A stretch of 57,955 bases of DNA, counting the filler, from Platydemus manokwari (Eukaryota): assembly GCA_037951405.1 (NCBI GenBank). It is 5 parts of 5 records of this genome, joined end to end, with 100 filler letters (N's around TTAATTAATTAA, not from the genome) between each part and the next. Parts side by side here need not be neighbours in the genome. Positions count along the whole stretch, not along the records: positions 32,314 to 44,700 come from JBBMOY010162232.1; 4 more parts are not named here. One strand, given 5' to 3'. The notes beneath the pieces are model-generated. The model was given only the letters and a program-made list of their open reading frames with translations, did no database searches and was not told where the DNA came from. Positions 14,081 through 55,051 of the stretch are shown here, one piece after another. Position 1 is the stretch's first letter, and each line of letters begins with the position of its first letter. The translations under genes and the position numbers were made by a program.

Positions 14081-14783
14081 GTTAATGAATTTGATCGTAA
14101 TTAGAGACACATGAAAGTGATGGATGATTGAATATTTTGGATCCAAGAAATGCATTAAAAATAGATTTTATGTTGTTCATGTTTGATGTTGTGTCGAATC
14201 CTTATATTGATAAATTCTGGAGGTTTAATTTATCCACTCATGTTGTCTGATAAAGTGGGATCCTGACAATTCATTGGATCTTATATTGAACTTCCGACGA
14301 CTAATATGTTCGCCATTATCTGGTTTGATTTATGATCTGACAAAGAATTTTCATTGCCCATTTATCAAAAGGGACTATTTGATTCTGGTTAGGCAGAAAT
14401 AACGTTCTTTGTTGTTGTTATAAATCATTGGAATATTTTTGTTTTGAAATTCTTACTTAATCACATAATAATGATACGAAATTATTATAATTAATTTCAA
14501 CTTTTTAAAAATGTTTCAATAACTGATATCACCCGAATCAATATTTATTTGCTTAAATAAAAAAGTTATCAAATCTTGCTAATGGGAACTAAATTAATTT
14601 CTAGAAATAATAAACCATATTATTTAATTGTTCTTCAATGACGATGAGAGGGTAAAAGGAAATTTTCAATTATCCCACTTATAGTTTCTAAAAGTTAAAC
14701 AGTCTTCTGTTTAATTGAGAAACTTTTTTAACTTTATTATGATTTCTCATTATAATAAATGTCATTGGAATATATTGGTATAA

Positions 14784-15361
14784 AATAGAATATCACCATA
14801 AAATACCGTTATAAAATGTTGTTATAAAATATTGATACACGTTGTCACCATATAATATTGCTCTAGACTATTACTAGAAAATATTGCTTGAGAATATCAC
14901 TATAAAACATAGACATAAAATATCGTTATGGAATATTGTTATAAAATTTCGCTACAGAATATCACTATAAAATATCGCTATAAAATATAATTATAGAATA
15001 TCGCTATAGAACATCGCCTTCAATATTGATACACAATGTCACCATATAATATTACTCTAGAATATGACTATGAAATATCGCTTTAGAATATCACTATAAA
15101 ACATAGCTCTAAAATATCGTTACAAAATATTGTTATAAAATATCGCTACAGAATATTACTATAAAATATCGTTATAAAATATCACTATAAAATATCAATG
15201 TAGAATATCACTGTAGAATATCGCCATGATATATCATTATGAAGTATCACTATAAAATATCACCATAAAATATCGTTATAAAATATTGATACAGAATGTC
15301 ACCATATAATATTACTCTAGAATATTAATATGAAATATCGCTTTAGAACATTACTATAGAA
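14784..15361. repeat. 12-bp minisatellite (consensus ~AATATCRCTATA) with higher-order blocks
   Basis: Dozens of 12-nt units; the block GATACACAATGTCACCATATAATATTACTCTAGA recurs near 14834, 15028 and 15288. Confidence 0.85.
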
Positions 15362-17889
15362 CATGGATTTCCAACGTGGGCGCTGCAAGGATCTAGAGGG
15401 TCGGTGGTGAATATAAGTTCCTTCGTGGTTGATAATACTATAAGAATGTAAGAAAATGATTATTAAAAATGTTGATGTATCTCGTTTGCTCAAAAAGCTT
15501 AATTTGTCTTTAAACAATGTACTGTACGTTCTCACTAATTAATAATGAAGTCTCAATCGCGTACTGGTTGTGCGCTTTATCGGTTGCAACACCGAAGTCT
15601 GGTAGTAGAGCGGTAGTATTTCTGGGATTCCCCGTAATGATTAACTGAAATAAAACTAAAAGAAAGGTTAGTTTGTTGTGATATTACGAGAAGTTAAAAT
15701 TAAGTAACAAACAGTACAACTGGAATTGGCAAGTATTAAATATTTTGTAATAATAATAAGCCCTTTACAATTAATAATGTGAAGTTTATTGAATATATCA
15801 GAATTTTAATTTACTTTTTACAAAAATATGTCTGAAAATACCTCTATATAAATTTTATTTCTCCATAGATAATAATGGCTCGAACAAAGAAAAAATGTCG
15901 ACAATATAATAAGGAATATTTGAAATACGAATTTATCGAATCGCCTGCAAATATTAAATTACCAATGTGCCTTATTTGTCAAAAGGTTTTATCAAACGAA
16001 GCGATGAAGCCTTCGAGATTACAAGAACATTTGAATAAAATCCATGGTGATAAAGAGAATAAATATTTATCTATTTTTCAAACATTGAAAGAAAAATTTA
16101 TTAAACAACCGACATTGGCAAAACTCTTTTCAAATGTTAACAATGGACATGACGATGGCTTGCTTGCTAGCTACAACATTTCATTAATGATTGCGAAACC
16201 TTGAAAACCGCATACCATTGCCGAAGAACTAATAGTACCAACCATAAGTGAAGTAATACGTACTGTTCTGCATAAGCCAGTATTTGATATTATCAAGAAA
16301 ATTTCTTTGAGTAATAATACAGTGCAAAGAAGAATTGATGAAATGGCGGAAAATGTTGAAAACTTATTATGTGGATATCTAAAAACATCTCGTTTCTCTA
16401 TTTAACTAGAAGAGTCAACTTTGCCAGGTAATGAAGCTTTGCTTTTAGCATACGTGAAATTCATAAAGGAAGAACATAAATGTCAAGAGTTCTTATTTGC
16501 AAAATATTTGCCAATCGATACCAAAGGAACTTCAATATTTCATACAATGGACGAATTTTTTAAAGCAAAAGAAATGACTCTGAGTAATATTTTATCAGTG
16601 ACCACGGATGGTGCTCCAGCGATGATTGGACGCTTCAAAGGCTTTCTTGCATATTTGAAAAAGGAGGTACCGAATGTATTCACAGCCCACTGTGTTATTC
16701 ATCATCAGCACCTAGTTGCCAAAAATTTAAGTGCTTCCCTACATAATTCATTACAATATGTAATTAAAGCTGTCAAAACAATTCCGAGTAAATCATTGAA
16801 TGACAGATTATTTAAACAGCTTTGTATTGAAAAAGATGAAGAATTCAATCGTTTGCTGCTTTATACAGAAGTTCGGTGGTTGTCAAAAGGAATCTTTCTA
16901 GATATGTTTCACAAACTGTTTAACTCGATGCTGCAGTTCTTGGAAGATAAAGATGATGTATTACGATCCAATTTAATTCAAACCAAAAGTGTCATCGCTT
17001 ACTTGACAGACTTATTCCATAAATTTAATGAAACCAATCTTCAGTTTTAAGGTGATGAGGTGAATTTAATAAAAACAAAATCGGTTATATCTGTATTTGT
17101 TGCAAAACTACTCTTGTACAAGCAAAACCTTGAACGAGGGGAAATCAGACAGTTCCCAAATTTAGCAGGAGCAGAAAGTAAAATTGAAAACATGTTATCC
17201 TATTGTTAGCACTTGGATGCTCTACATTTAGATTTTAGTCAACGATTTGATGATATTTTGAAAATGAATGTGTCAGATTGGATTTTATATCCATTTTCAA
17301 CTGGAAATACAGCAGAATCTCCACAAATGCAAGAAGAATTGATGAAAGCAAGTACCAATGATGAGTTAATATTTAAATTCAAAAGCGGTTACCGAAAATT
17401 CTGGTTATAAAAGGAAATCTCTACAGCTTATATTGATGCATGGGCTATAGTTCAAAAGTTCCTCATTGCATTTCCTTCATCATATCTGGTAGAGCGTGGT
17501 TTCAATGCAGTACCCAATTTGTTAACCAAAAACAGAATCCGCTTGAAGATAGTCAATTGGGGTGATTTAAGGTTACTTCTGACGAAAATAGAGCCCAAAG
17601 TTACCAGATGGGTAGCAGCACACCAGGTTCATCTTTCTGATTAACATAATTTCGAGTTTTTGTATTAAAATATATTCTAAGTGCAATAAATATGTTCTTA
17701 CTTTCAAAATACATTGTTTCTACCTAATTTATATATCTTTTAATATTTAATGAAAAGATAGTAACATTAAGATTTTTTTATAAATTGTAACTTAAAGTTT
17801 AAAAAAATTGGTGTGGGTTAGTTTGTGTGGACTAAGTAATATTTATTCTGAAAAGGCGGTGGTACGCCCGAAAGGTTTTGGAATCACTG
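15362..17889 (+). mobile_element. hAT DNA transposon, Buster/Charlie group, near full length
   Basis: Right end reverse-complements to CAGTGATTCCAAAAC; degenerate left end CATGGATTTCCAAC; flanking 8-mers CTATAGAA / CTTTATAG both fit the nnnTAnnn Buster target; contains a full transposase frame. Confidence 0.85.
15875..17644 (+). pseudogene. Buster-type hAT transposase pseudogene (SCAND3/ZBED-like), 589 codons, five in-frame stops, no frameshift
   Basis: BED-type finger CLIC..MKPSRL..HL..H, FSI*LEEST, TDGAPAM, HCVIH, VRWLSKG, FPSSYLVERGF, C-terminal QVHLSD*; stops at 16202, 16403, 17048, 17207, 17408. Confidence 0.92.
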
Positions 17890-29429: not shown

Positions 29430-29614
29430 AAATTGAATTTAATTTGAATTAGTATAGAATTTAAATTTATATTAAATTTGATTTTAAATTGAATTTAATT
29501 TGAATTAGTATAGAATTTAAATTTATATTGAATTTGATTTTAAATTGAATTTAATTTGAATTTGTATAGAATTTAAATTTATATTGAATTTGATTTTAAA
29601 TTGAATTTAATTTG
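29430..29614. repeat. 56-bp AT-rich tandem repeat, ~3.3 copies
   Basis: AAATTGAATTTAATTTG units start at 29430, 29486, 29542, 29598. Confidence 0.9.
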
Positions 29615-30965: not shown

Positions 30966-32087
30966 ATGCTACTGTCTACAAATAACACAAAAACCAGGAG
31001 TTTATTTATCATCTTCTTGGAATATACGAACTGTTCCCATGGTTCCACAATTTTGTCCGACAATAATCTATCACTGACAGTTTTATTGTCCATTCAACTG
31101 GCATGTCATCTAACATCTTTTGTCCTCTCAGTAATGGCCCTAATGGTAGTCAAATATTATGGAATCGCTGGTTATAGAATGAATCGAATTCTATTATTGC
31201 TTAGCATCATTGAAGTATTCTACAATGGCAGTTCCTCGATTTATTACATCATATTGATTTTCTACAAATCCTATTCACCATTCAACATTTATCTGAGGGT
31301 TTTCCTCAATTTATTCTCCAATCGATTGTTTATTCTCGTTCGCAACTGGTGGATAGCCTTTATCGCACTGACGAGATTTATTGTCGTTCGCCATTCAGTG
31401 GAAGGCTGTAGAATTAGAGTCGCTATGAGTAATATCAGTTTCTTAATAATTGTACTAGTCGGGATTATTTATACCATTCTTTTTACTTATTGGTTCTCTA
31501 TTTTTGTGATTATCTGCAAAGATTATCACCGATTCTCGATATTCGTTTGGAATATCCATAAAGAATCGGCAATTTATAAAATAGCCGATGCTCTGACCGT
31601 GCTGTTGGAAACAATCTCTCCAATCATTATAGTGATAATTTGTTCTCTGTTAACATTTATGTTTTTAAAATCTCGTAAAACGATTATTAAAAGGACTCAA
31701 AAAAGAAAATCGAAAACTGCGAAAACTTTATTCTTTATTTCGATAATTTTCACAGTGTGCCAGTTGCCGTCGTCAATGATTATTGCGTTTTGTTTTGTGG
31801 AAAAGGAGTCCATGCTTCTGGCTTATCCAAATTTCGAGAATTTTTCCAAACAGATCAGGTCGATTGCTCTAATTTTTTCAGCCTTAAATTCCATTGGGAA
31901 TGTAGTGATCTATTTTGCAAGAAGTTCCGATTTCAAAACCGCTCTTCGTGATATTATCTATTGTCGATGGAGTTTTGTAAAATTCAGGAAATCGGTCGAC
32001 AAACGCCGAACCAAGTCTCCGTGGAATTCTTACAGACGACGGACGCATTTTTCGTCAGATTGTTTAGAAAAGGAATCACAGTTTTGA
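30966..32087 (+). CDS. Intronless class A (rhodopsin-like) orphan GPCR, Srw/peptide-receptor-like flatworm type, 373 aa
   Basis: Seven hydrophobic segments; TM3 RNWWIAFIALTRF (in place of DRY), TM5 proline, basic ICL3, TM6 FTVCQLP, TM7 NSIGNVVIY, helix 8 SSDFK. Confidence 0.9.
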   Translation: MLLSTNNTKTRSLFIIFLEYTNCSHGSTILSDNNLSLTVLLSIQLACHLTSFVLSVMALMVVKYYGIAGYRMNRILLLLSIIEVFYNGSSSIYYIILIFYKSYSPFNIYLRVFLNLFSNRLFILVRNWWIAFIALTRFIVVRHSVEGCRIRVAMSNISFLIIVLVGIIYTILFTYWFSIFVIICKDYHRFSIFVWNIHKESAIYKIADALTVLLETISPIIIVIICSLLTFMFLKSRKTIIKRTQKRKSKTAKTLFFISIIFTVCQLPSSMIIAFCFVEKESMLLAYPNFENFSKQIRSIALIFSALNSIGNVVIYFARSSDFKTALRDIIYCRWSFVKFRKSVDKRRTKSPWNSYRRRTHFSSDCLEKESQF

Positions 32088-32313: not shown

Positions 32314-33049
32314 AAGGTCCTACCAATCTCAATGAATCTAAGAATCTAATGTTTTTATAGTGGAAAGAAATATATTTTTCATCTGTATTTGTTATTATTT
32401 TTTTAATACTATACTGTGAATTTAGTTTCATGATATCATTTAAAAAAAGATGAAAATCATAATTACTTCCGTTATGAGTATAACATGGAATAAAGAAATT
32501 TCTAATAGATTTATGATTTAAATTACAATTATTACAAGAAGCACCTCTATATTTCCCATTATAATGATCATGATTTCTTACTTTTCCTGTTTCTTCTGTA
32601 AAATGAATATCACAATATTGACAAGTTAAAGATTCTGGAAAATTTAATTCATCTTCTTCACTCAATAGTATACTTTTTACATATATTCTTACTGATAAAG
32701 TTTTTTGCTTAAATAAATATTTAGTATTACTCTTACCTAATACTTCGCATTGATCAATGTAATTTTTAAATTTATTTTCAGAATAATATTTATTCAAACG
32801 TCTTAGGCACATAAATTGACTATGTCCATTTTTCGCAAATATGTTCATATTTATACATAGTACATAATGTTTTTCAAACAATAATACATTACAACCTCGA
32901 GGATTTTAATAAAAATAAAATAATGGGAACACATTTTGATCTTTATCAATTTCAAACACATTGAATTCTATATAATTTTGAATTTTAAATTTCTTTATCC
33001 TTTCTAAAGAAATGGGAAATTCTATTGTATTCAAATTTAATTGACCACC
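32314..33049 (-). mobile_element. Polinton/Maverick-type protein-primed DNA polymerase B fragment, truncated by contig end
   Basis: LNLNTIEFPISL..FNVF..(stop)..HYVL; EndoVII-like Zn motif CQYC..VRNHDHYNGKYRGASCNNCNL; exonuclease motif HNGSNYDFHLF; IRFLDS. Confidence 0.88.
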
Positions 33050-33189
33050 ATGCACCATTGAAACCACTGGAATATTATAAAAGAAAAATAACTTTAAGGA
33101 CTATCAACAGAGGAAAATGAGAAAGATGGATACCGAACCAGATAATCACGATTAAAGGCACAAATTTATTCAATCTGTTTGAATCGCAA

Positions 33190-34700
33190 AAACAGAAAAT
33201 TCTATGATCAAACATTGGACAAAGTCAATTAACAGCGAACATATTTTATAGTGAATAAATAACAATATCGAATTGATTAATTTCTCCTGAATACGTTAGG
33301 TGAATAATCCCAATATCGACTGTCGTAATTAAATTTTTGTGCACTGTTTAAATTTTGGCCAACGTTTATATACCCAGATTTTTGTGGGAGCAATTACTAA
33401 TTTTCGGTTAATTTCGTCGTTAATGTGGTAATTTATTTTTTTCCCGTTGTGATTATTTTTCCAAGGTGAATCAGCGCTATCAGTGCTTTCACCATAGCAA
33501 CAAACTAAATCACCATGGTTGCGTGAATTTTAGAAAATTTTAAGGATTGATGATTCATTTGTATGTTTAAAATTATTATGAATTAAACAGTGTGGGTTGA
33601 TAGGCTGTGATATACCTGGACTAATAATCCAGCAAGAATAAGTGTTTTTCTTTTTACAATTCGAACTTACGTAGCCACATTAAAATCGATATTTAATTTT
33701 TAATTTAATGTTAATTTTTGTACTAATAAATCAAATTCTAGCCACTTGTCCTTTCAGCCCGCTTTTGATTTCCAATAAAATAAGTTTTTATGCAATGGGT
33801 ATTTCCAAAAATCTTTTTATGTTCTTTTATAATTCAAGTCTTATTATTTGTTATAATTTAGATAAATACTTATCCAGTCTTATTGCACTTATCGCTCAAT
33901 TATAATTTTTAAAACCAAAATAGACCTTTGGATAATTTGTTACACATAATATAATCCTCAATACTTACTATCGAAAACTCTTAGGACACAAAGTCAGGAA
34001 CCAGAACAAATAATAAAATACATATTTAATAAATGTATTCTAGATTATTTTTTGTTGAACTTTCCTTTATATAATTTTGCTTCGACTAATTTGACTTGTA
34101 TTCAATATCCGTTGAGCTTTCTAACATTTTAATTCGTGTGTTGTCAGCTTATATAGTTGCTGACTTTAGACACTTTGTGCCCATTGATAAAATGTAATTT
34201 TAAAATTTTAATCATTTCGGTACTTTGTATTGCAATTTTAACTTAATGATTTTAACCTTTGACATTTAATAAGTTTGTAAATTGAAATTTAATAATAATA
34301 ATTTTATAGCTTTTTTTAGTTTTTCGGATATTTGGTTTACTAGGTTTATAGATTTAGTATTACTTGAATCAAAACAAATTGAAAATTATGTGAGAAATCA
34401 TGTAAGTATTCAGGCCCTGTTAATAGATAAGTTGAGCTCTGGTTTGCATTTTATTGATAATATTTGATTAGTACACTTGTCTTCAAAAGGTGTATGTATA
34501 TTATTAATTGGATGTGTAACTATTTTATAAATCTGGAATAAAATAAATAAAATTGATTTATCTAAAGTATAATTATTATTACAATGGGAACAATTTAAGC
34601 AAATGATCCGGTTTGGGTTTTTTTTATTACCAGTTTAATGTAGGTATAACTCTATTGATTTTATATAACTCTTGGTCTAATGGTGCCGTAACGACTGATA
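33190..34700 (-). mobile_element. Highly degraded LINE 5' region (possible ORF1 Cys motifs plus AP endonuclease)
   Basis: Ordered remnants resembling Y.P, GDLV (GDFN) and FDHR (SDH) motifs; upstream ICLNCSH; many stops and frameshifts. Confidence 0.3.
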
Positions 34701-35121
34701 TAATATCCTTCCATTGTTTTAAGATTTTAGTCCTTAGATATATTCTAGTTCAATTAGATTAAAGCTAGAATGTTTTAGTGATGTAGCTTTAAATTTATAC
34801 ACAATATAAATTTTAAGAAATAATTTAAACTAATAAAATTAAAATTGTAATAGTTAATTTAATTTAGTCGATACGTTTCGATACTGGAACATTTGTATGC
34901 TAAGTACAATCTTTAATTTAGAATATATTTGCATTTTAGAATAATTCTTCTGTTGTTTATAGCTCTCGTTTTAGGTTGGTGGTTTAATATTTATATTTCC
35001 TGTCACTTGTCTTGAATAATAATATTTCCGTCGTAGGATAACTAGTTGACGATAGTAATTATTATGTCAAGAGTTCAGTTACAGCCTAATGGCAATGTTT
35101 TATGATTTTGATGTTTATTTA

Positions 35122-35379
35122 TGTTGGGTTCGCTTTACGCTAGACGTAACAAAGGTTCGTAACTTTCTTTAATAATTTCCTATCTGACTCCAAAAGATAG
35201 TCGTCACTTCACTAAGTTATATTCATATCAAAATGTACAAAGCAGTTTAACACGGGCTTAACTCTTAATAAAGTTCTCACAATGCTGAGATACTGGCCGA
35301 GGAGCTACTCCTGGCCTAAATTACGTACTCGCGAACGTAGTTAAATTACGGGCGCTCTACACTAATACCTACTGTTACA
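35122..35379 (-). mobile_element. Candidate LTR (TG...CA bounded) at the 3' side of the minus-strand retroelement remnant
   Basis: TGTTGGG at 35122 and TGTTACA ending at 35379; GC-richer, non-coding, hairpin-rich; no polypurine tract or second copy seen. Confidence 0.3.
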
Positions 35380-37499
35380 ATACTGATATTCGAAGTTCAC
35401 TACCCCGAATATCCTAATACAATGATTTTCTACTTTACTCTGCGATAATAATATTCGGAATTCACTATCCACGAATATTCTAATAAATACAATGCAATAA
35501 AATATCAAACAATAACCTGATTTCTGGTTTCAATATTCCAATGATTACTTTATTCCAATAGTTTCTCGGAAATTCTCCTACTATTTCGATGTCCTCCTTG
35601 CAAAATATTCTAATATCTAATAGCTTCTTTTCAAAAAAATTCTTTGCTGACGATTTCTTTTCCTACCTTTTTGCAATTGAGTTGTTCAACGCAAGTCAGC
35701 ATTTATATGCTACAATTGTGCTTGCACCACTTGCAGCACATTTCTCTTTCCCTGAGTTGACATGTGCAGTCAACCCCTACATTTAGATTAATATCAACAG
35801 ATATTAATCGATATTTTCCTTTCTGGAAAATTGTCTGCTATTTCATTATTTTAACAACACTAAAACAAATATATAATTTTCTAAAAATAATTTTAAATTC
35901 TTTATTTATTCAAATCTTTATTTAATAATTATTTTTCTTACTAATAATTTAACATTAACATTATTTTTCTACTTTATTATTTATTTTAATAAATTTATTT
36001 TCTTTATCTTTTAATTTAACTTTGCTCATTAACTATTTACTTTCATTTTAATTTTAATACTTTTACATTATAGACTCCTTATTCGCCTTATTCAAAACGA
36101 TAAAATAAATAACAAAATACATTTATTAATTCACCATCAAAATCATAATCAAAATCACAATCAGAATTATAATTCAATGTCGTTTTGCTATCAATTCAGC
36201 CGTCATATCTTCTTCCTTTTAATACGGCGTTCCTCTCCGGTACTGTTTCAGAAATAGGCTAAATAGCCTAACCGAAATATCTGTTTCTAATCGCTATCTT
36301 TCTGAGGTCCTCACTGGATCCTTCGATTTTCACTGTTGCATATGGAATAACTATCGTTTTCCAACCCCTCTTCAACTTCAATTGCTGTGAGAACATTGTC
36401 TATCTTGACCTCTTTTTGATCTTCTATCAATCCTTTTACATTCTTCGGTTTTATCGCGCTTTCTCCTTGAGGCAATGATTGACATTCATGAAGGCTTCTA
36501 TTCGGTCATAAAAGATTCGGGGTTTAACTGTCTTCTTTACTGACATTCCTTTTCTTTTCGAAATTGCTTCTATCTGGGTTAGGGTTTTCTTGTGAATTCT
36601 AGGTAATCCTGCTACTGGTGTGGGTTTATTGCTCATTCTAAAATATAAATAATTATTAATATCGATTGATACTCTTTTTGCAAAAGAAACCAAACAATTT
36701 ACTTTATATAGTAGATACACTATGTGCTATATTTCTAACATTGAGTACCATGGGTTCTTCTTGTTCTGTTTGTATCTGGATGCTAATTTTTGGTAGCTGA
36801 CTAACATTCTTGTTGCTAACGTTAATTTTACTATCCGCATTACAATGGTTGTCATTGCAAATCCTATTATCATCGATTGTTCTACAGATCTTAAAGATCT
36901 CTTGTCCTGTTTTGATTCGTTTTGACTTCCTGGTCCGGTACCCATTCTCTTCAAATGAGTAAGGGAATCTGAAAAACCGACTCCATAATCACTTTATTCC
37001 CTATTTTCCTTTGGTTTCTTTGATAAATCATGGCTTTTATCCCTCTCCTGAATGACTGCCAGTCTCTGGTTGTCGTAGGTTTCATTGTCGCAGTCGTAGG
37101 TAATGGCGGCGGTATTTTCTGAATGGGTTTGAAGTTAAATCCCGGAATTATTATTTATACTTCTTCATATTCTTCTACCAAAAATTTTGACAACTCCTTA
37201 CTCCACCAATTATACCATATGTAAGCTTGTCTTGGCTTTGTCCAGTGTCATATCATGCCTTGTGTGCTTTTCGTCCAGCACTATCACCATTCATTCCATT
37301 TGAATTTGTGCTGTATAATTACTTTTCGGATTTCACATCCAGGTTATATTATCCTTTGTCACAAATATTCTCACCGGTGCTCGTTTACACCGTGTTTTTC
37401 ATATCTTTGTTTTGTCTTCCGCGTACGTTGATCTTTATGTGACACTTCTATTTCAAACCAGTAGACGCGTGGCAATCTTAGGCTAGTATATGTAACTTT

Positions 37500-37672
37500 T
37501 TGTTTATATCTTCCAAAATAGACTTTCGCTTTGGCAAGGTATTCAATTTCACTACGTGGAATAATTTACAGATCCCCGCAATTATATTGCTCATGAAATC
37601 CTTTCCTCTATCTGTCAACATCTTAATTGGTGCTCCATACCGGAACACTAACTCTTCCACGAATATTTAGCT
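37500..37672 (-). pseudogene. Ty3/Gypsy integrase catalytic-core fragment
   Basis: FVEELVFRYGAPIKMLTDRGKDFMSNIIAGICKLFHVVKLNT matches the rve segment around the second catalytic Asp (I..R.G.P..L.TD.G..F.S). Confidence 0.88.
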
Positions 37673-37679
37673 GAGCTTA

Positions 37680-38296
37680 TATAAGCTAAGTGACATTCCA
37701 TTGGCCGTACCTCATATACTAAAGTTGCTTGTCTGTTGAAACAGTTTGGAAATGATAACATCGCTCCTGATTCCTCATCGAAAACTTCTTTAACTTCTAT
37801 TAACTCGGTTTCATAATCATAAATAGTAACTGTGTTATTGACATAATATTTCCCTCTATTGACCGTTAGTCCAGTACATAGACCATCACCGTAAATTTCT
37901 CCTCCTTCAATTAGGATTTATGTACTTATTACACCTTTTTCTACTGTGAGAGTTGTTTTCTCATCAATTCTTAACTTCTTTGTGGTAAAGGCAAAGTTAC
38001 AAGCTGTTGGAGGAACTTCTATGGCTCTGGGTATCACTTTGGCAGAGACTATTGATGCATGACTGTGATATCCACAATACTATTCTAAATTAGCTTTCTT
38101 TACTCTGCATTCTAATTCTATAGCCAGTTTCTTTATGTAACAGGTATATCAATTTTGTCGTGTTTACCTCCAAATCCACTCTCGAATATATATTTTGTAG
38201 CTGAGGTTTGTGGCAATCAAATGCTCGTATGGTCGTGATTCCTGTCCTATTAAATAAACTCATTACCATGATTATTATTAACAATATCATAGACAT
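37680..38296 (-). pseudogene. Chuvirus/gB-type class III fusion glycoprotein (env), N-terminal part, disrupted
   Basis: Signal-like MSMILLIIIMVMSL, then RAFDC; after a frameshift near 38120: LECRVKKANLE*YCGYHSH..PPTACNFAF..GEIYGDGLCTG..NNTVTIYDYETEL..FDEESG..PNC. Confidence 0.8.
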
Positions 38297-39429
38297 CTGT
38301 GCTCTCAATTCTATGTTTGGTGCTTCTCTTATTTTAGATGGTTTGGGTTTGCCCTTTTCTTTGATCAGTCCTTGACTCGATATATTTTTCCAACAACGTG
38401 CCAATTTTTCCTAGAGTTTCTTGGTATTTCTATTGATGCTTTGTAGTTACTTCATATAGCTTTCGTATCATGACGGCTATAGCTATTTGAGGTTTCCCGC
38501 GTCCCATTATTCCTTGAGCAAAGCTTCTAATAATCACTTCGTCATCCACTTTTTCATCTGATATGATGTGTCAAATTCGAGCTTCTACACTAACCAATTT
38601 GGTCCTCAGTTTTTTTTATAACTCATTATCCAATAGATCTTGAAAATCTGTTGATGAGGTTAATTCCAGATGTAGAAATTTCAACACGTTCTCTAACATG
38701 TCCTCTGCATGGGCTCTATCAAATTTCGTGCTTCTTTCACTTAAGCTCTCGCTTTAATTTTTCCACTTGTAGTGGCACTTAGCGTATGCCTTGCAATTTG
38801 ATCTTTTCTTAGTTTCCCTGGTCCTGGATGTCTTGTCTCGATTCTTCTATCCTTCTTTGGTTAGGTGATTGGCTCAGTGAATTCCGATGGTTTTCTGACA
38901 GGTGGAATTAATTGTTCATAATCTCCTTCTCCATATGATTGGACGAATTCGTCTTGAGTTTCTTCTAATTTTGTTTCTTCTTGCATTTAAACTTCTTCTG
39001 GTTCTGTCTCTTCTTTGCTTTAAATCCTTCTTAATTTTATTCATTTTCTCTCCTTTTTCTGATACAATACAAGTTTCTCTAATTAGCTCATTTTGCTCTT
39101 CAGATAGATTATCTGGTTCATCTGATGGCTCATCTTTCCATTCACTTCGAATCATGTCAATATAACTCGTTTTGTGACATCCTATGAGAAGAATATGATA
39201 TAAGACAAAAAAAGACACAACATAAATACATTATCGCAAATGTATGGTATCACATTGAATGGAATGGTCAATGATAATAGATTATAGGTATTATAGATTA
39301 TAGACAAAATAGTAATGATAAGGTTAAATTGGTTAAAAAATCAAAATGATACAAGTGAAAAGGAAAAATTTAAAATCATAATGCAAATATCATAATCCAA
39401 ATTTCTAAGTCCAAATACAGCAACAATAG

Positions 39430-42400
39430 TTGAAAAGGCACTTCAAAATAGGGAAAATAGAAAAACGACGAAGTAAGGAAAATTATGCAATGGAAAAAAC
39501 ATTTGTTTCGTTATGTTCAAGGTTAAAAATGGAGGATAAATTAATAAATGAAGGAATGATGAAAATGAATGCCGATAGATGGGCAGCTGAAGTTCTATCA
39601 TGGATGTTCATAAATTAATATCAAGGATACCCAGCAAAGTGGGATAGCAGATATTGCTTGATAGGACAAACATACATGATAAGGAACAAATTAAGAAAAA
39701 TGCAAGTAAAAATCTATAAATTGGACAAATTAATAAAAGAAAATGAGCAAGGAAAGAACTTTGAACTATGGAAAAATGAGTCGCGCAACATACTCATGGA
39801 AAAAGAAATATTTAAGCCTGAGATAATAATGAATAAATTTGAAGAGAAAATGTGAAAATTTTAGTTTATAATATACGATAATATGGGAAAAAGAATAGTA
39901 AAGGAGGAAATATTTCCACTGGCAACATCAATTCAATTATAAAAAGAGCTAATAATATTAGATTGGTCCGAGGTATTAAATAAGAAGGGGGAAAAGATAA
40001 AATAATGAAAGGAAGTAAAAGAATGTTAGGATGGAAATGCTTAGGGGATTATTTTGATGATAAAAACAATGAACCAATAAAAATAAGGGATATGCCAAAC
40101 ATGGTAAAAACAGAAGAACAATTTGTAAAAGCATTGCATCCACAAGCAACCATAAAAGGTGGAATGACAAACATATCAAACACACCAGAATTAACCTGAA
40201 ATGATAAGATTCAGGAAAGGGAATTAAGCAATTAAACATGATAAGAAGAGATGGAAGAGAAAAGACTGTCAACTATCGATAGTAGCAACAACAATAGGAT
40301 TAGAATGGAGTAGGAAAAGAATGGCAGATGAAGAAAAAACTAAAATAGAAATTAAAATAATAGGCAAATATTGAGAAGAAATTAAAAAGTAAGTTAGGAT
40401 AAGTACAAACGCATCAATAGAGATACTAAGTAGTGAAATAAATAGAATCTGGCCATATGGCATAGATGAAAGGAAGTATAGTGAAAACAAGGCAGGAATG
40501 TTAGCAGGAAAAATACATAACAACATAGAAATAGAGACAATAGGAAAGACATTAAAATTAATGACAGATGGAGTATTCATGTATAAAGAACATCTAGGTT
40601 TCTATCTGATAGATAAGGGTAAATAGAATAGATTTACGACTATAATGAGGCCATAAGGATTTATAACAAGAAAAAGAAATAGGGGAAAATATATTAGTGA
40701 ATGGACAAGAGAACCAGTAAAACTACAAGAAAATCCAGTTTATGAGTTAGAAATAACAATAGGAAAGGAAATACATGACATGGAGAAAAAGATAAGGTAT
40801 AGAATTAGTGAGAGTACGCCAAAACAATGGTTTAGAAAAAGGGTAAGCAAACAACCACCGGATAAATATGTAGAAAGATGGAAGAAAGAAACACCCAAAG
40901 AATTGAAAATAAAATATAGCTTAAGAAGAGAAATCAAGTGAGAAAAATGGGAAATTTTGGATAACGAAATGCAATTCTAGTTATATTTATTAAGAGAAAG
41001 AGACAAAAATGAAATAGTAATAACACCATTAAAAGAGGAATTAACACACTACATGGTAAAGATAGATAGAGAACCCAATAATTGCCCCGATATGGTTAAG
41101 ACAAACGAATTAATATTCAAACATTGGACAATAAAGAAAGTAAGAGGCATTACAAGAACAATATGTAGACCAAACAGAATAGAATAATGTAAAGATAATA
41201 ATCTATCATAATCAAGAACAAATAGCGGTAAGGTTAAATTAAGGCATATATTCAAAGATGATGAAATAAAGTCAATAGAAATAAAGTTCGAGTCAGAAAA
41301 ACTTAATTACAGAACATAATCAATTCTTTGGGATCAATATGAAATAAATATGATAACTTGTGAAGGGGAATTTAAGCAATAAAATAGAATAGAAACAGAA
41401 GTTAAAATAATAGATGGGATAGGCACTAAGTTAATCGAAATAGTGAAAGTAAAAGAAACAGCAACAGTAGAATACCTAAAATATGAAATAGATATAATCT
41501 AGCAATTCAGAAGAGAGGGAACTAGGAAAATGACATATAGTATAAACGTGTGAATGTTAATAAGGAAAAAGGAAACATTACTGGGAGTAACATTAGAATT
41601 AATAACAAAGGGTATATTTATAGATAATGTCTAACTACTGGAATATTACCAAATAAGTGCGAATAAGGAAAATAAATTAATAGCAGTCATGAGAACATGG
41701 GATGAAAGAATAACGGGTATGGAAGATAAGTTACCAATTACGTTACCAATATGGTTACTGGAAGCATTGGTATATCACTTAAAAGTGAAAATAAGAGGAA
41801 GAAAAGAAGAGAAAAAAAAGGTGCAAATGCGTGAATTAAGTGGTTTTAAGAAATGGATAAGAAATCAAACAAAAATACCCTAAGAAAAATAAATAGTGAG
41901 ATGATAAAGTATACCAATAAAATAGAACATAAATATGAACATAAGGGAAAGAAAGAAGAAATCTGGAGGATACTGGATGATGATTACCAGTTTCGACATT
42001 GTCATTTATAAGAAATAGGATGGAATAATATAAAAGATAATGAAAGAAGACAATTTAAAAGATTTTTTCATGGAATATGAAATAAACAAAGTAACAATAA
42101 ATATAATATCAAATAGTCCAACTACTTTACGACCATGACTATGAAATAGAAAAGGAATTGGAAGGAGTTTGGATAATAATGGATAACGAAAAGGATCTTT
42201 GGCAATATTCATTGAATGAAGAACAACCAAATGAAATAATTATTAGTCCAATATGCGAGGAAACAAAATTCATAGTTAATTTTGAAATGGAAAAGAGCGC
42301 ATGTTCATGTAAAACAACTGAATATAAGATGATTCCAAAAGAGGCACAAGTTAAACATTTCAAAAAAATAATCATATGGCAAGCAACAAATAGAGTTGAA

Positions 42401-42520
42401 TGAGATACATCAAATATGATCATTTACCAAAATAAGAAAAGGAAAGTCGGTTGGGAAAAATTAAATGACATCTTGAAAGACGATGAAATAAATACAATAG
42501 AAGTAATAGTGATTACCAAA
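39430..42520 (+). pseudogene. Decayed polyprotein of tandem ubiquitin-like (beta-grasp) domains in three ~1.2-kb super-repeats (element B)
   Basis: Mostly one frame with scattered stops. 40747-40926 aligns without gaps to ubiquitin L15-R74; paralogous units 40342-40650 vs 41395-41694; KDDEI at 41254 and 42476; W.I.DNE..Y.L.E..NEI.I.P..EE at 40948 and 42170. Confidence 0.7.
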
Positions 42521-43451
42521 ATATTTGAAAGATATGCGGAGTCAAAAAAGATAAGAATGGTAAAATGTAGAAGAAAAACCAAAGAGAGAAAAATTGACAG
42601 ACAATGGTCAGTCGACCTGGATGAAATAGTAGATGAAGAAATAAGTGGAGATAATAAAAGTAATGATGATAAGAAAGAAACGTCAAAGAAGAAAAAGAAG
42701 AAAAAGTAGGTTAAAAACACAGAAGTCACTGAAACATCAGGAAAAGACTTCATGAAACGTATAAAGAGAATAAGCAAATAAGGAAACAACAGAATGAATT
42801 AGGGAATTGTATGGGATGTTTACAAGGACAGTATCACGATCCATTTTTCGGATGTCAAAATAACAACAAACTAAAGCACATAGAAATTAAAAAAGTAGTG
42901 TACTCATATCGAAAGGAAATAAATCTGATCACACCTGAATCACAAAATAACGAGGAAGAAGAAAAGAAGTTAGATGAAGAAATAATATATGGCGAAGAAC
43001 ATATACATCAACAACCGATTTTCCTACCTGAATACCAACCGAAAGATAATTATGGATACATACCACAAGTTCCATATGATATTTACGGAAAGGAAAAAAT
43101 TAAACAGTATCTACAAGCATTTGGTGGCGAACCCAGTGTTTTATATAAAAATGAAAAATTGCAAATAAAGACATTAGAGCATTGTATAAGTAATTATTGA
43201 GAAGAAATAAACTGAATAAGCAATAAAATACCTGATAAAAAACCGCTAAGGACGTAATTAATATAATAAATGAGAAGAAAACACTAGAATGGATAATTAC
43301 GACTTTGCAAACAACAACTATTTTAATGAATAATAAAATAATAGATAGAGAAGAAGGAGCGGCATTAATATCAAATGGATATGACAGCGAAATTAACCAA
43401 CATCAAGAATGGCCTAAATTAATTCAAACAATGTTAGAAAAATGACTGAAA

Positions 43452-44135
43452 ATGAAAAAACAAGACGAATCATTAGAGAAACACCATAAGCAAAAATCCA
43501 AATTTGCCACCATATTTCAAACGTTAATAACAATGTATCTAGTAGGAATAATAGAAGGAGGTGATGCGAGAATTAATGGATATGATTGTGGAAAAGATTC
43601 ATTACTAGACATTGATAAATGCCCAGATATTGATTTAACAAAATCAATAGCTAAGGAAATGTATGTATACTATGAATCCAAATTTCTGTTCGACAAAGCT
43701 AAAGAGTGTAAAATAATGTATCAGGAGTTAACATTTCACTGCTCATGGTCATCAGAAGCATATACAACAGTATGAGAACTGGAATGGGCACCAATGGCGG
43801 AGATACCTACAAAGGAAAAATGTAAGCAAGCATTTGAGAATGGAACATATTACTCATCACAAGGACATGCAAAAACATTAGGGAAATGTATAATAAGACA
43901 AACAATAGGACCGGAGGGATGGAGAGGTTCAGGAAGTTATTGTAAAGGTTCAGAATACCAAGTGTGGAATAAGACATTAGAAAATGTAGTAGCACTTAAA
44001 CATTACATCATAGAATTAAAGGAAAGTCAAGCTACATTTGATGCTTAGACAAAAAAAATTAAAACATGGATAAATTGTGAATACGAGAAAGAAATTTGTG
44101 GCACAGGTACTCTGTCAAACATATTCATCACTTGG
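43452..44135 (+). pseudogene. Chuvirus/gB-type class III fusion glycoprotein (env), N-terminal part, two in-frame stops, 3' truncated
   Basis: Hydrophobic leader IFQTLITMYLVGIIEG, then INGYDC..SLLDIDKCP..ECKI..FHC..KCKQAF..GSYCKG..ENVV..HYIIEL..NCEYEKEIC..ITW; Cys spacing parallels 37680-38296. Confidence 0.85.
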
Positions 44136-44139
44136 AAAT

Positions 44140-44562
44140 GTATTGATGATGATTATTTGAAAATTTCTAATCATGAGTTTTCGAGTTAATCAAAAATAGA
44201 ATCGAATAGAATAGAAAAATAGAATAGTTGTATGTTTGACACTTGAAACCCAGGAATTGCTTTCTCTTGTTGTAAGAATTACTTTTGCATTGGGATAAAT
44301 GTTCCTGAAATCTTTGTAAAATGAAACTAAAGGCTCACCTATTGGAAAACAATATCTTTGAAACAATCGATCACACGTTTCTCTATCGATAAATCCACAA
44401 TTGAAATTGTTAATCCACGTCTGACAGTGATCTAGGCAATGATCTATGTATATAACACCTCTGGCCATAGAATCCTCCCAGAGCAAGCTTAAGTGACATA
44501 TTTCCAGTTCTCATACTTCCAGTACTAATGACGAATAAATCGTTTGTTTTTTTATTATTCAT
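44140..44562 (-). pseudogene. Sulfotransferase pseudogene (Sulfotransfer_4 / schistosome SULT-OR-like family), frameshifted and 3' truncated
   Basis: ATG 44562: MNNKKTNDLFVISTGSMRTGNMSLKLALGGFYGQRCY (family motif VIGAG..RTGT.SLK.AL...CYH); frameshift near 44450; then W..DRLFQRY..P..FYKDF..YPNAKVILTTRESNSWVSSV. Confidence 0.85.
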
Positions 44563-44700
44563 TTACAGGAAGCAACGCAAATAATTGTGAATGATTTCAG
44601 GTGCACATAGACATTCTAAAATGTATAAGAGCTAACTAACTAAATGTCTCTCACTCAATTATATAAATACAACATTTCAACAGACAATTTGAAATGACAC

Positions 44701-45953: not shown

Positions 45954-55051
<9,098 letters not shown>

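Follow-up and report, generated by a model that had tools for sequence, protein, structure and literature searches.

A broken multi-copy relic of Platydemus manokwari, ending in a truncated class III fusion glycoprotein, probably derives from a Burro-like giant retroelement

Burro elements are giant Ty3/gypsy retroelements of planarians in which, according to the review by Arkhipova and Yushenova (2019; PMC6431247), a polyprotein of ~4,900-5,100 residues carries Gag, accessory domains that include a Ubi2/SUMO-like motif and BCL2, an in-frame env, protease, reverse transcriptase (RT) and integrase. The same review gives mononegavirus glycoprotein matches for the Burro env, describes Burro in one planarian species as decaying fragments only, and is our source for the original accounts of Burro and GYPSM1 (Grohme et al., 2018; Jurka, 2007). 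Elements bearing env are also described from Schmidtea, whose errantiviruses form the group Platyhelminthes_C1a with an HSV/gB-type ENV (HSV, herpes simplex virus); the flatworm elements presented in that survey have gB-type env only, in the order GAG-ENV-POL (Chary and Hayashi, eLife 2026; PMC13524379). The same glycoprotein class has been captured by long terminal repeat (LTR) elements of mosquitoes, the BEL/Pao elements with chuvirus glycoproteins, which differ in their insect hosts and belong to a different LTR superfamily (PMC7642597). Here we describe a region of the genome of Platydemus manokwari (positions 39200-44153, plus strand, of a 57,955-nucleotide stretch of assembly GCA_037951405.1, hereafter the window) that is a broken multi-copy coding relic with a truncated class III fusion glycoprotein at its end. 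It probably represents the middle part of a single long polyprotein gene, ordered gag - accessory domains - env - pol, from a giant Ty3/gypsy element of the Burro kind in a planarian.

The region, read as a retroelement polyprotein gene comprising an accessory region and the start of env, is the remnant of a decayed gene that switches frame six times or more and does not stay in a single one. Between 39430 and 44186, where the last segment ends, the relic frame has 34 stops in 1,607 codons, where base composition predicts ~149, and the other two frames of the same span have 211 and 178; the count was made on seven hand-chosen frame segments, picked after the fact. Taken by itself, the longest segment contains 17 stops over 573 codons, compared with 89 and 63 in its other frames. 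An earlier note on this DNA had described the region as largely one frame: the coding relic stands, whereas a single frame accounts for only 939 of the 1,607 codons. The purine richness of the plus strand reported there was recovered (purine fraction 0.56-0.75 in 200-nt windows from ~39200 to 44100), and the skew reverses at ~39150-39200. Coding-like composition begins near 39200, not at 39430 where the note had placed the start.

At the downstream end of the relic (43560-44153, +) lies the N-terminal third of a class III (gB/chuvirus-type) fusion glycoprotein, which matches Pfam PF24664 (Monjiviricetes fusion) with an E value of 1.3e-11 and 43.7 bits, the curated cut-off being 27. The match covers residues 104-301 of the last segment and profile positions 18-223 of 653, and the frame ends at 44186, such that neither a complete ectodomain nor a C-terminal membrane anchor is present; the glycoprotein with a GYDC..SLLD..C pattern that had been proposed here holds as to its family and is cut short. 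Immediately before it, a hydrophobic leader (43503-43559, +) with a basic stretch ahead of it is likely an internal signal or anchor, and its hydrophobicity, also pointed out in the note, is moderate (Kyte-Doolittle mean 1.47 over 19 residues). No relative of env was found among near-length proteins and longer proteins of 547-2,000 aa, proteins of >2,000 aa lying outside the search, nor among viral contigs. A sulfotransferase fragment (PF17784, E 4.1e-13) lies on the minus strand at 44190-44507, directly at the cut end of env.

We compared env by hand, in three ungapped blocks totalling 111 positions, with the env proteins of Schmidtea, which make up 6 of the 229 env rows in supplement file 3 of PMC13524379, and the counts may err by one or two. 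The closest of these six published GAG-ENV-POL env proteins was Smed_errantivirus_3, with 45 of 111 positions identical, and the other five rows had 30-37; in the paper itself, identity among the 12 pairs shown ranges over 31-64%. The env domain I region and Smed_errantivirus_3 have their cysteine spacing in common, and the word WAP occurs in seven rows, among which Smed_errantivirus_3 is the sole flatworm element. Among the rows compared, the relic is therefore close to the gB-type errantivirus env of Platyhelminthes_C1a. The Schmidtea elements are also alike in having env away from the 3' end of the element; they are intact, whereas the P. manokwari copy is a fragment. All six Schmidtea rows in supplement file 2 of the survey are without LTR or primer-site entries, and because of this they may be Burro elements: missing LTR entries are as expected if Burro elements of >25 kb have their LTRs outside the 14-kb limit used. 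This points to a single group for the Burro elements and for what the 2026 survey calls errantiviruses in Schmidtea, a link stated in neither paper as far as the parts used here go; in the main text of the survey the words "ubiquitin", "SUMO" and "Burro" do not appear, and the region upstream of env is undescribed.

The relic belongs to a family of many copies. One sequencing run (X1) contains the stretch; the assembly may itself derive from this run, so that the two are not independent; no RNA dataset is among those listed as containing the stretch. From this run, 2,599 contigs fall on 32320-44700, of which 286 are 99+% alike to it, 445 are at 95-99%, 742 at 90-95% and 1,126 under 90%. Summed depth, which is not equal to copy number, reaches 221-3,503 over 39341-44296 against 31-157 over 33146-35210, and is far above the latter over 35211-44296. 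Because most contigs are less than 95% alike and the summed depth is raised, these data indicate a diverged multi-copy family. The naming of PF24664 for glycoproteins of negative-strand RNA viruses would favour an integrated piece of a non-retroviral RNA virus, i.e., a chuvirus-like endogenous viral element; however, the many diverged genomic copies, the long accessory frame, an env closer to retroelement env rows and the failure to match any nucleoprotein or polymerase make such an origin extremely improbable.

Upstream of env, more than 1,300 relic codons lie on the same strand with uniform composition, which is what an env within a polyprotein would lead one to expect, and the frame would have been continuous across the frameshifts. 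An env inside a long frame behind accessory sequence is a Burro trait, as are a Gag at the N-terminus, a PR-dUTPase-RT-RH-IN series behind env, and LTRs. As far as Burro and GYPSM1 are described in the review (PMC6431247), they share with the relic a long stretch of accessory sequence upstream of env, an in-frame env that matches mononegavirus glycoproteins, the place upstream of env taken in Burro by the Ubi2/SUMO-like domain, and the occurrence as decaying fragments; the gypsy class of the relic is a likely one. They differ in that one SUMO-like motif, and no array, is named for Burro, whereas the P. manokwari relic has a duplicated module of ~350 aa, and in that the Burro env was likened to gypsy Env by HHpred, whereas the P. 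manokwari env matches PF24664. The proposal in the earlier note that the region is the accessory arm of a giant retroelement with an env is supported, for a flatworm element, by the env similarity to the Schmidtea elements and by the many diverged copies. Its further suggestion that the pairing of ubiquitin-like units with env might be new is not supported, since such a pairing is published for Burro, in which a Ubi2/SUMO-like domain lies upstream of a mononegavirus-like, in-frame env (PMC6431247), and the copy cannot be infectious, as had been thought possible, because it is a broken fragment without pol.

Several points weigh against a Burro-like origin. Burro was compared by description only, and the env comparison was confined to the few rows given above. 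Searches of Pfam and PDB detected no MATH, BIR, ankyrin or BCL2 domain, and gag, protease and RT are absent from the element strand, as are LTRs and target-site duplications; an LTR pair was not found either. Whole-frame Pfam scans of 32401-57955 gave no gag, protease or RT, which is a weak negative because the scans missed the known env too. The planarian label is a likely one, drawn from the env similarity and from an A+T content of ~72%. In addition, among the contigs listed, none bridges the module and env. With no pol on the fragment to classify the element, and with the accessory domains of Burro undetected, another env-bearing LTR element, either an ordinary-size GAG-ENV-POL gypsy or a BEL/Pao element with a captured chuvirus-type glycoprotein, is a less likely candidate, and env of the gB type is known from numerous lineages of gypsy as well as from BEL/Pao elements of mosquitoes (PMC13524379). 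Nevertheless, a giant element is in keeping with the >1,300 codons of accessory, non-gag sequence that lie upstream of env, and the env resembles the Schmidtea set. We know of no long accessory arm in the mosquito BEL/Pao elements. It could also be argued that module and env come from different repeats, joined by chance or as an assembly mosaic, given the missing bridge between them, the four N stretches in the window and an adjoining minus-strand relic that is itself a patchwork. We regard this as improbable: the region has one strand and uniform composition, the relic frame runs from the linker described below into env through two frame changes without foreign DNA, and near-exact contigs cover 39553-40039, 40284-40760 and 41583-42089.

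The only feature of this probably Burro-like relic that may be new is the duplicated ~350-residue module. Module A (40320-41360, +) and its second copy, module B (41360-42600, +), form an old tandem duplication of two copies of ~350 aa, with three candidate ubiquitin-like units in module A; module B has ~180 extra bases near 41880-42135, which include a weak partial repeat (score 45, reached by 7 of 1,000 shuffles). The first halves of A and B align with a score of 117 and the last halves with 139, neither being reached in 1,000 shuffles. The two are ~59% identical in DNA and have an equal residue in 92 of 284 aligned codons (32%). Excess identity by codon position 1, 2 and 3 is 0.34, 0.41 and 0.17, which suggests that the modules diverged under protein-level constraint, with a bias to be held against this result, namely that the alignment was made on protein. 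Within a module, the sub-units have no detectable similarity to one another; sub-units 1 and 2, the only pair that beat shuffles in hhalign, were rejected as an artefact of overlapping ends. Searching the module region against 1.84 billion protein representatives gave 0 matches, and no match was obtained among metagenome contigs. In the literature covered, to which Repbase and most subscription journals do not belong, we found neither a multi-unit ubiquitin-like array nor a duplicated ~350-aa module in such elements, although the original Burro account, the supplement of the review or Repbase may contain one. The N-terminal part of the relic (39430-40199, +) had no significant family match and no significant similarity to module A or B; a unit at ~39850-40100 within it has a strand-strand-helix-like pattern, by eye only.

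We then considered whether the modules are made of ubiquitin folds. A genuine array, in which six or seven divergent domains would have the ubiquitin fold, arisen by duplication of a three-domain module in the same Burro-like element, is compatible with the origin proposed above and bears on the fold only; we consider it possible, with the balance tipped slightly against it. In its favour, the units at ~40336, 40738, 41038, 41380, 41767 and 42260 have ubiquitin-like length and, by eye, a strand-strand-helix order. The 41380 unit ranks 6th of 4,614 windows with a ubiquitin hidden Markov model (HMM), and its two-sequence AlphaFold model, at a predicted local distance difference test score (pLDDT) of 37.4, places two strands (7-13 and 16-23) ahead of a helix (30-39). 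This order and spacing are those of the first half of a beta-grasp fold. A SUMO-like domain is also found at the same position in Burro, as described in PMC6431247. On the other side, Pfam searches with 13 pieces at E up to 10 gave no family of the ubiquitin clan, PDB profile searches gave no ubiquitin-like match, and with an HMM of 96 viral ubiquitins the best window of the region (E 8.4) ranked under five non-coding windows. None of nine unit sets beat shuffles in hhalign (the best, 5/60), the top-six sum of a boundary-free semi-global scan was equal to the average over shuffles (76 out of 150 reach it), the sub-units are not alike, and the 41380 model has no fold match at its low pLDDT. It should be noted that all of these tests have little power where domains are very divergent, and that the script reference was ubiquitin itself, not SUMO or other ubiquitin-like families. 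Modelling was uninformative: AlphaFold on the single sequence reached a pLDDT of 27.8, and Foldseek gave 0 matches at E 0.001, which at pLDDT values of 27.8 and 37.4 is meaningless. An adenovirus capsid chain (best Z 3.1 in VIA) was likewise dismissed at such model confidence, and weak PDB matches to SbcD and calsequestrin were rejected as composition.

The repeated ubiquitin-fold units of the earlier note thus reduce to a two-copy module of ~350 residues, the Pfam, PDB, ubiquitin-profile and shuffle tests being negative. Gly-Gly is absent from the 573-residue core and occurs twice in 1,388 residues, neither time ending a unit; because of this, poly-ubiquitin-like processing or conjugation, which had also been put forward, is disfavoured, and judging from the sequence a polyubiquitin-type precursor is excluded. 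A bolder picture would be that of a lineage of giant planarian endogenous retroviruses in which a single SUMO-like domain became six or seven non-conjugatable beta-grasp domains by three-domain duplication. The resulting array, accompanied by a variant zinc knuckle, would lie upstream of an env of the gB type and soak up the ubiquitin/SUMO machinery of the host as a decoy; taken as a whole, this picture is rather unlikely.

Between the modules and env, an acidic and then poly-lysine linker was found at approximately 42610-42720 (+), in agreement with the note. It is followed by a C-x2-C-x5-H-x5-C motif, predicted to bind zinc, at 42808-42855 (+); as had been claimed, the motif is there, and none of the six reading frames of the window holds a second one, the chance expectation being 5e-5, or ~1e-3 at most when 25 spacings are allowed. 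We take its spacing to be unlike those of the Gag knuckle and of BIR, and no BIR spacing occurs in the window. The domain just before env (42940-43500, +), split by a frameshift, has no BCL2 match. In Burro, a BCL2-like domain occupies the position just before env (PMC6431247); when the domains ahead of the two env relics of this locus (the second is described below) were read as BCL2-like, by eye and from the Burro order, searches gave this reading no support. A pattern scan for reference BCL2 genes gave 0, the regions before the two env relics are not alike, and the open reading frame (ORF) at 42733-43197 had no usable match in the ESM Atlas.

Head-to-head with the first env lies a second and different env relic (37660-38296, -), with a leader and a PF24664 piece at 38112-37810 (E 6.6e-11). 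It is ~25% identical to the first env and, in one hand-counted block, has 23 of 50 positions identical to Smed_errantivirus_4. Directly behind it, a weak integrase-core-like piece (37532-37666, -) has rve as the only family listed, with an E value of 0.27 that is below the cut-off. These pieces form part of a patchwork relic of a second env-bearing element (35200-39230, -), which is multi-copy in the same sequencing run and includes a helical region at 38331-38720 (-), beside further coding-like pieces. Scattered exons of a protein kinase gene (PF00069) occupy ~46000-53700 (-), with motifs that we take to be of MAP4K/Misshapen type, and the retroelement relics may be located within or behind this gene. 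Elsewhere in the window we found an intronless Srw-type G protein-coupled receptor of 373 aa (30966-32084, +), with one relative at 66%; an Endonuclease VII-containing ORF (32314-32905, -) cut by an N stretch, presumably a piece of a Polinton-type DNA polymerase; a DNA transposon remnant with zinc-finger and transposase pieces (15869-17050, +), the latter presumably hAT-like; and another remnant (11721-12179, +), which we assume to be Tc1/mariner-like, with 67-nt inverted repeats at 11560-11626 and 12083-12149. Tandem arrays with units of 13 nt and 56 nt are located at 14759-15403 and 29430-29614. The N stretches at 11304, 21336, 32214 and 44701 each consist of 44 N, a 12-base palindromic spacer and 44 N, and the order across them is uncertain.

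In an active ancestor of the probably Burro-like relic, the protease of the element would cut the polyprotein, as the published Burro layout implies, while, by analogy with the glycoprotein family, the leader would send env into the secretory pathway and a gB-type trimer would let particles fuse with other cells. The accessory region has grown by one tandem duplication of the ~350-residue module, and the copies would then have diverged under constraint on the protein. The units, if ubiquitin-like, would lack a terminal Gly-Gly and may have served as built-in binding or decoy domains, not as conjugated tags. The P. manokwari copy itself is dead, with gag, pol, the LTRs and two thirds of env missing. 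What it adds to the giant env-bearing retroelements of flatworms is a diverged family in which the accessory arm can expand by duplication of entire multi-domain modules and, if the ubiquitin-like array is true, it would offer a concrete handle on how giant elements interfere with host ubiquitin pathways.

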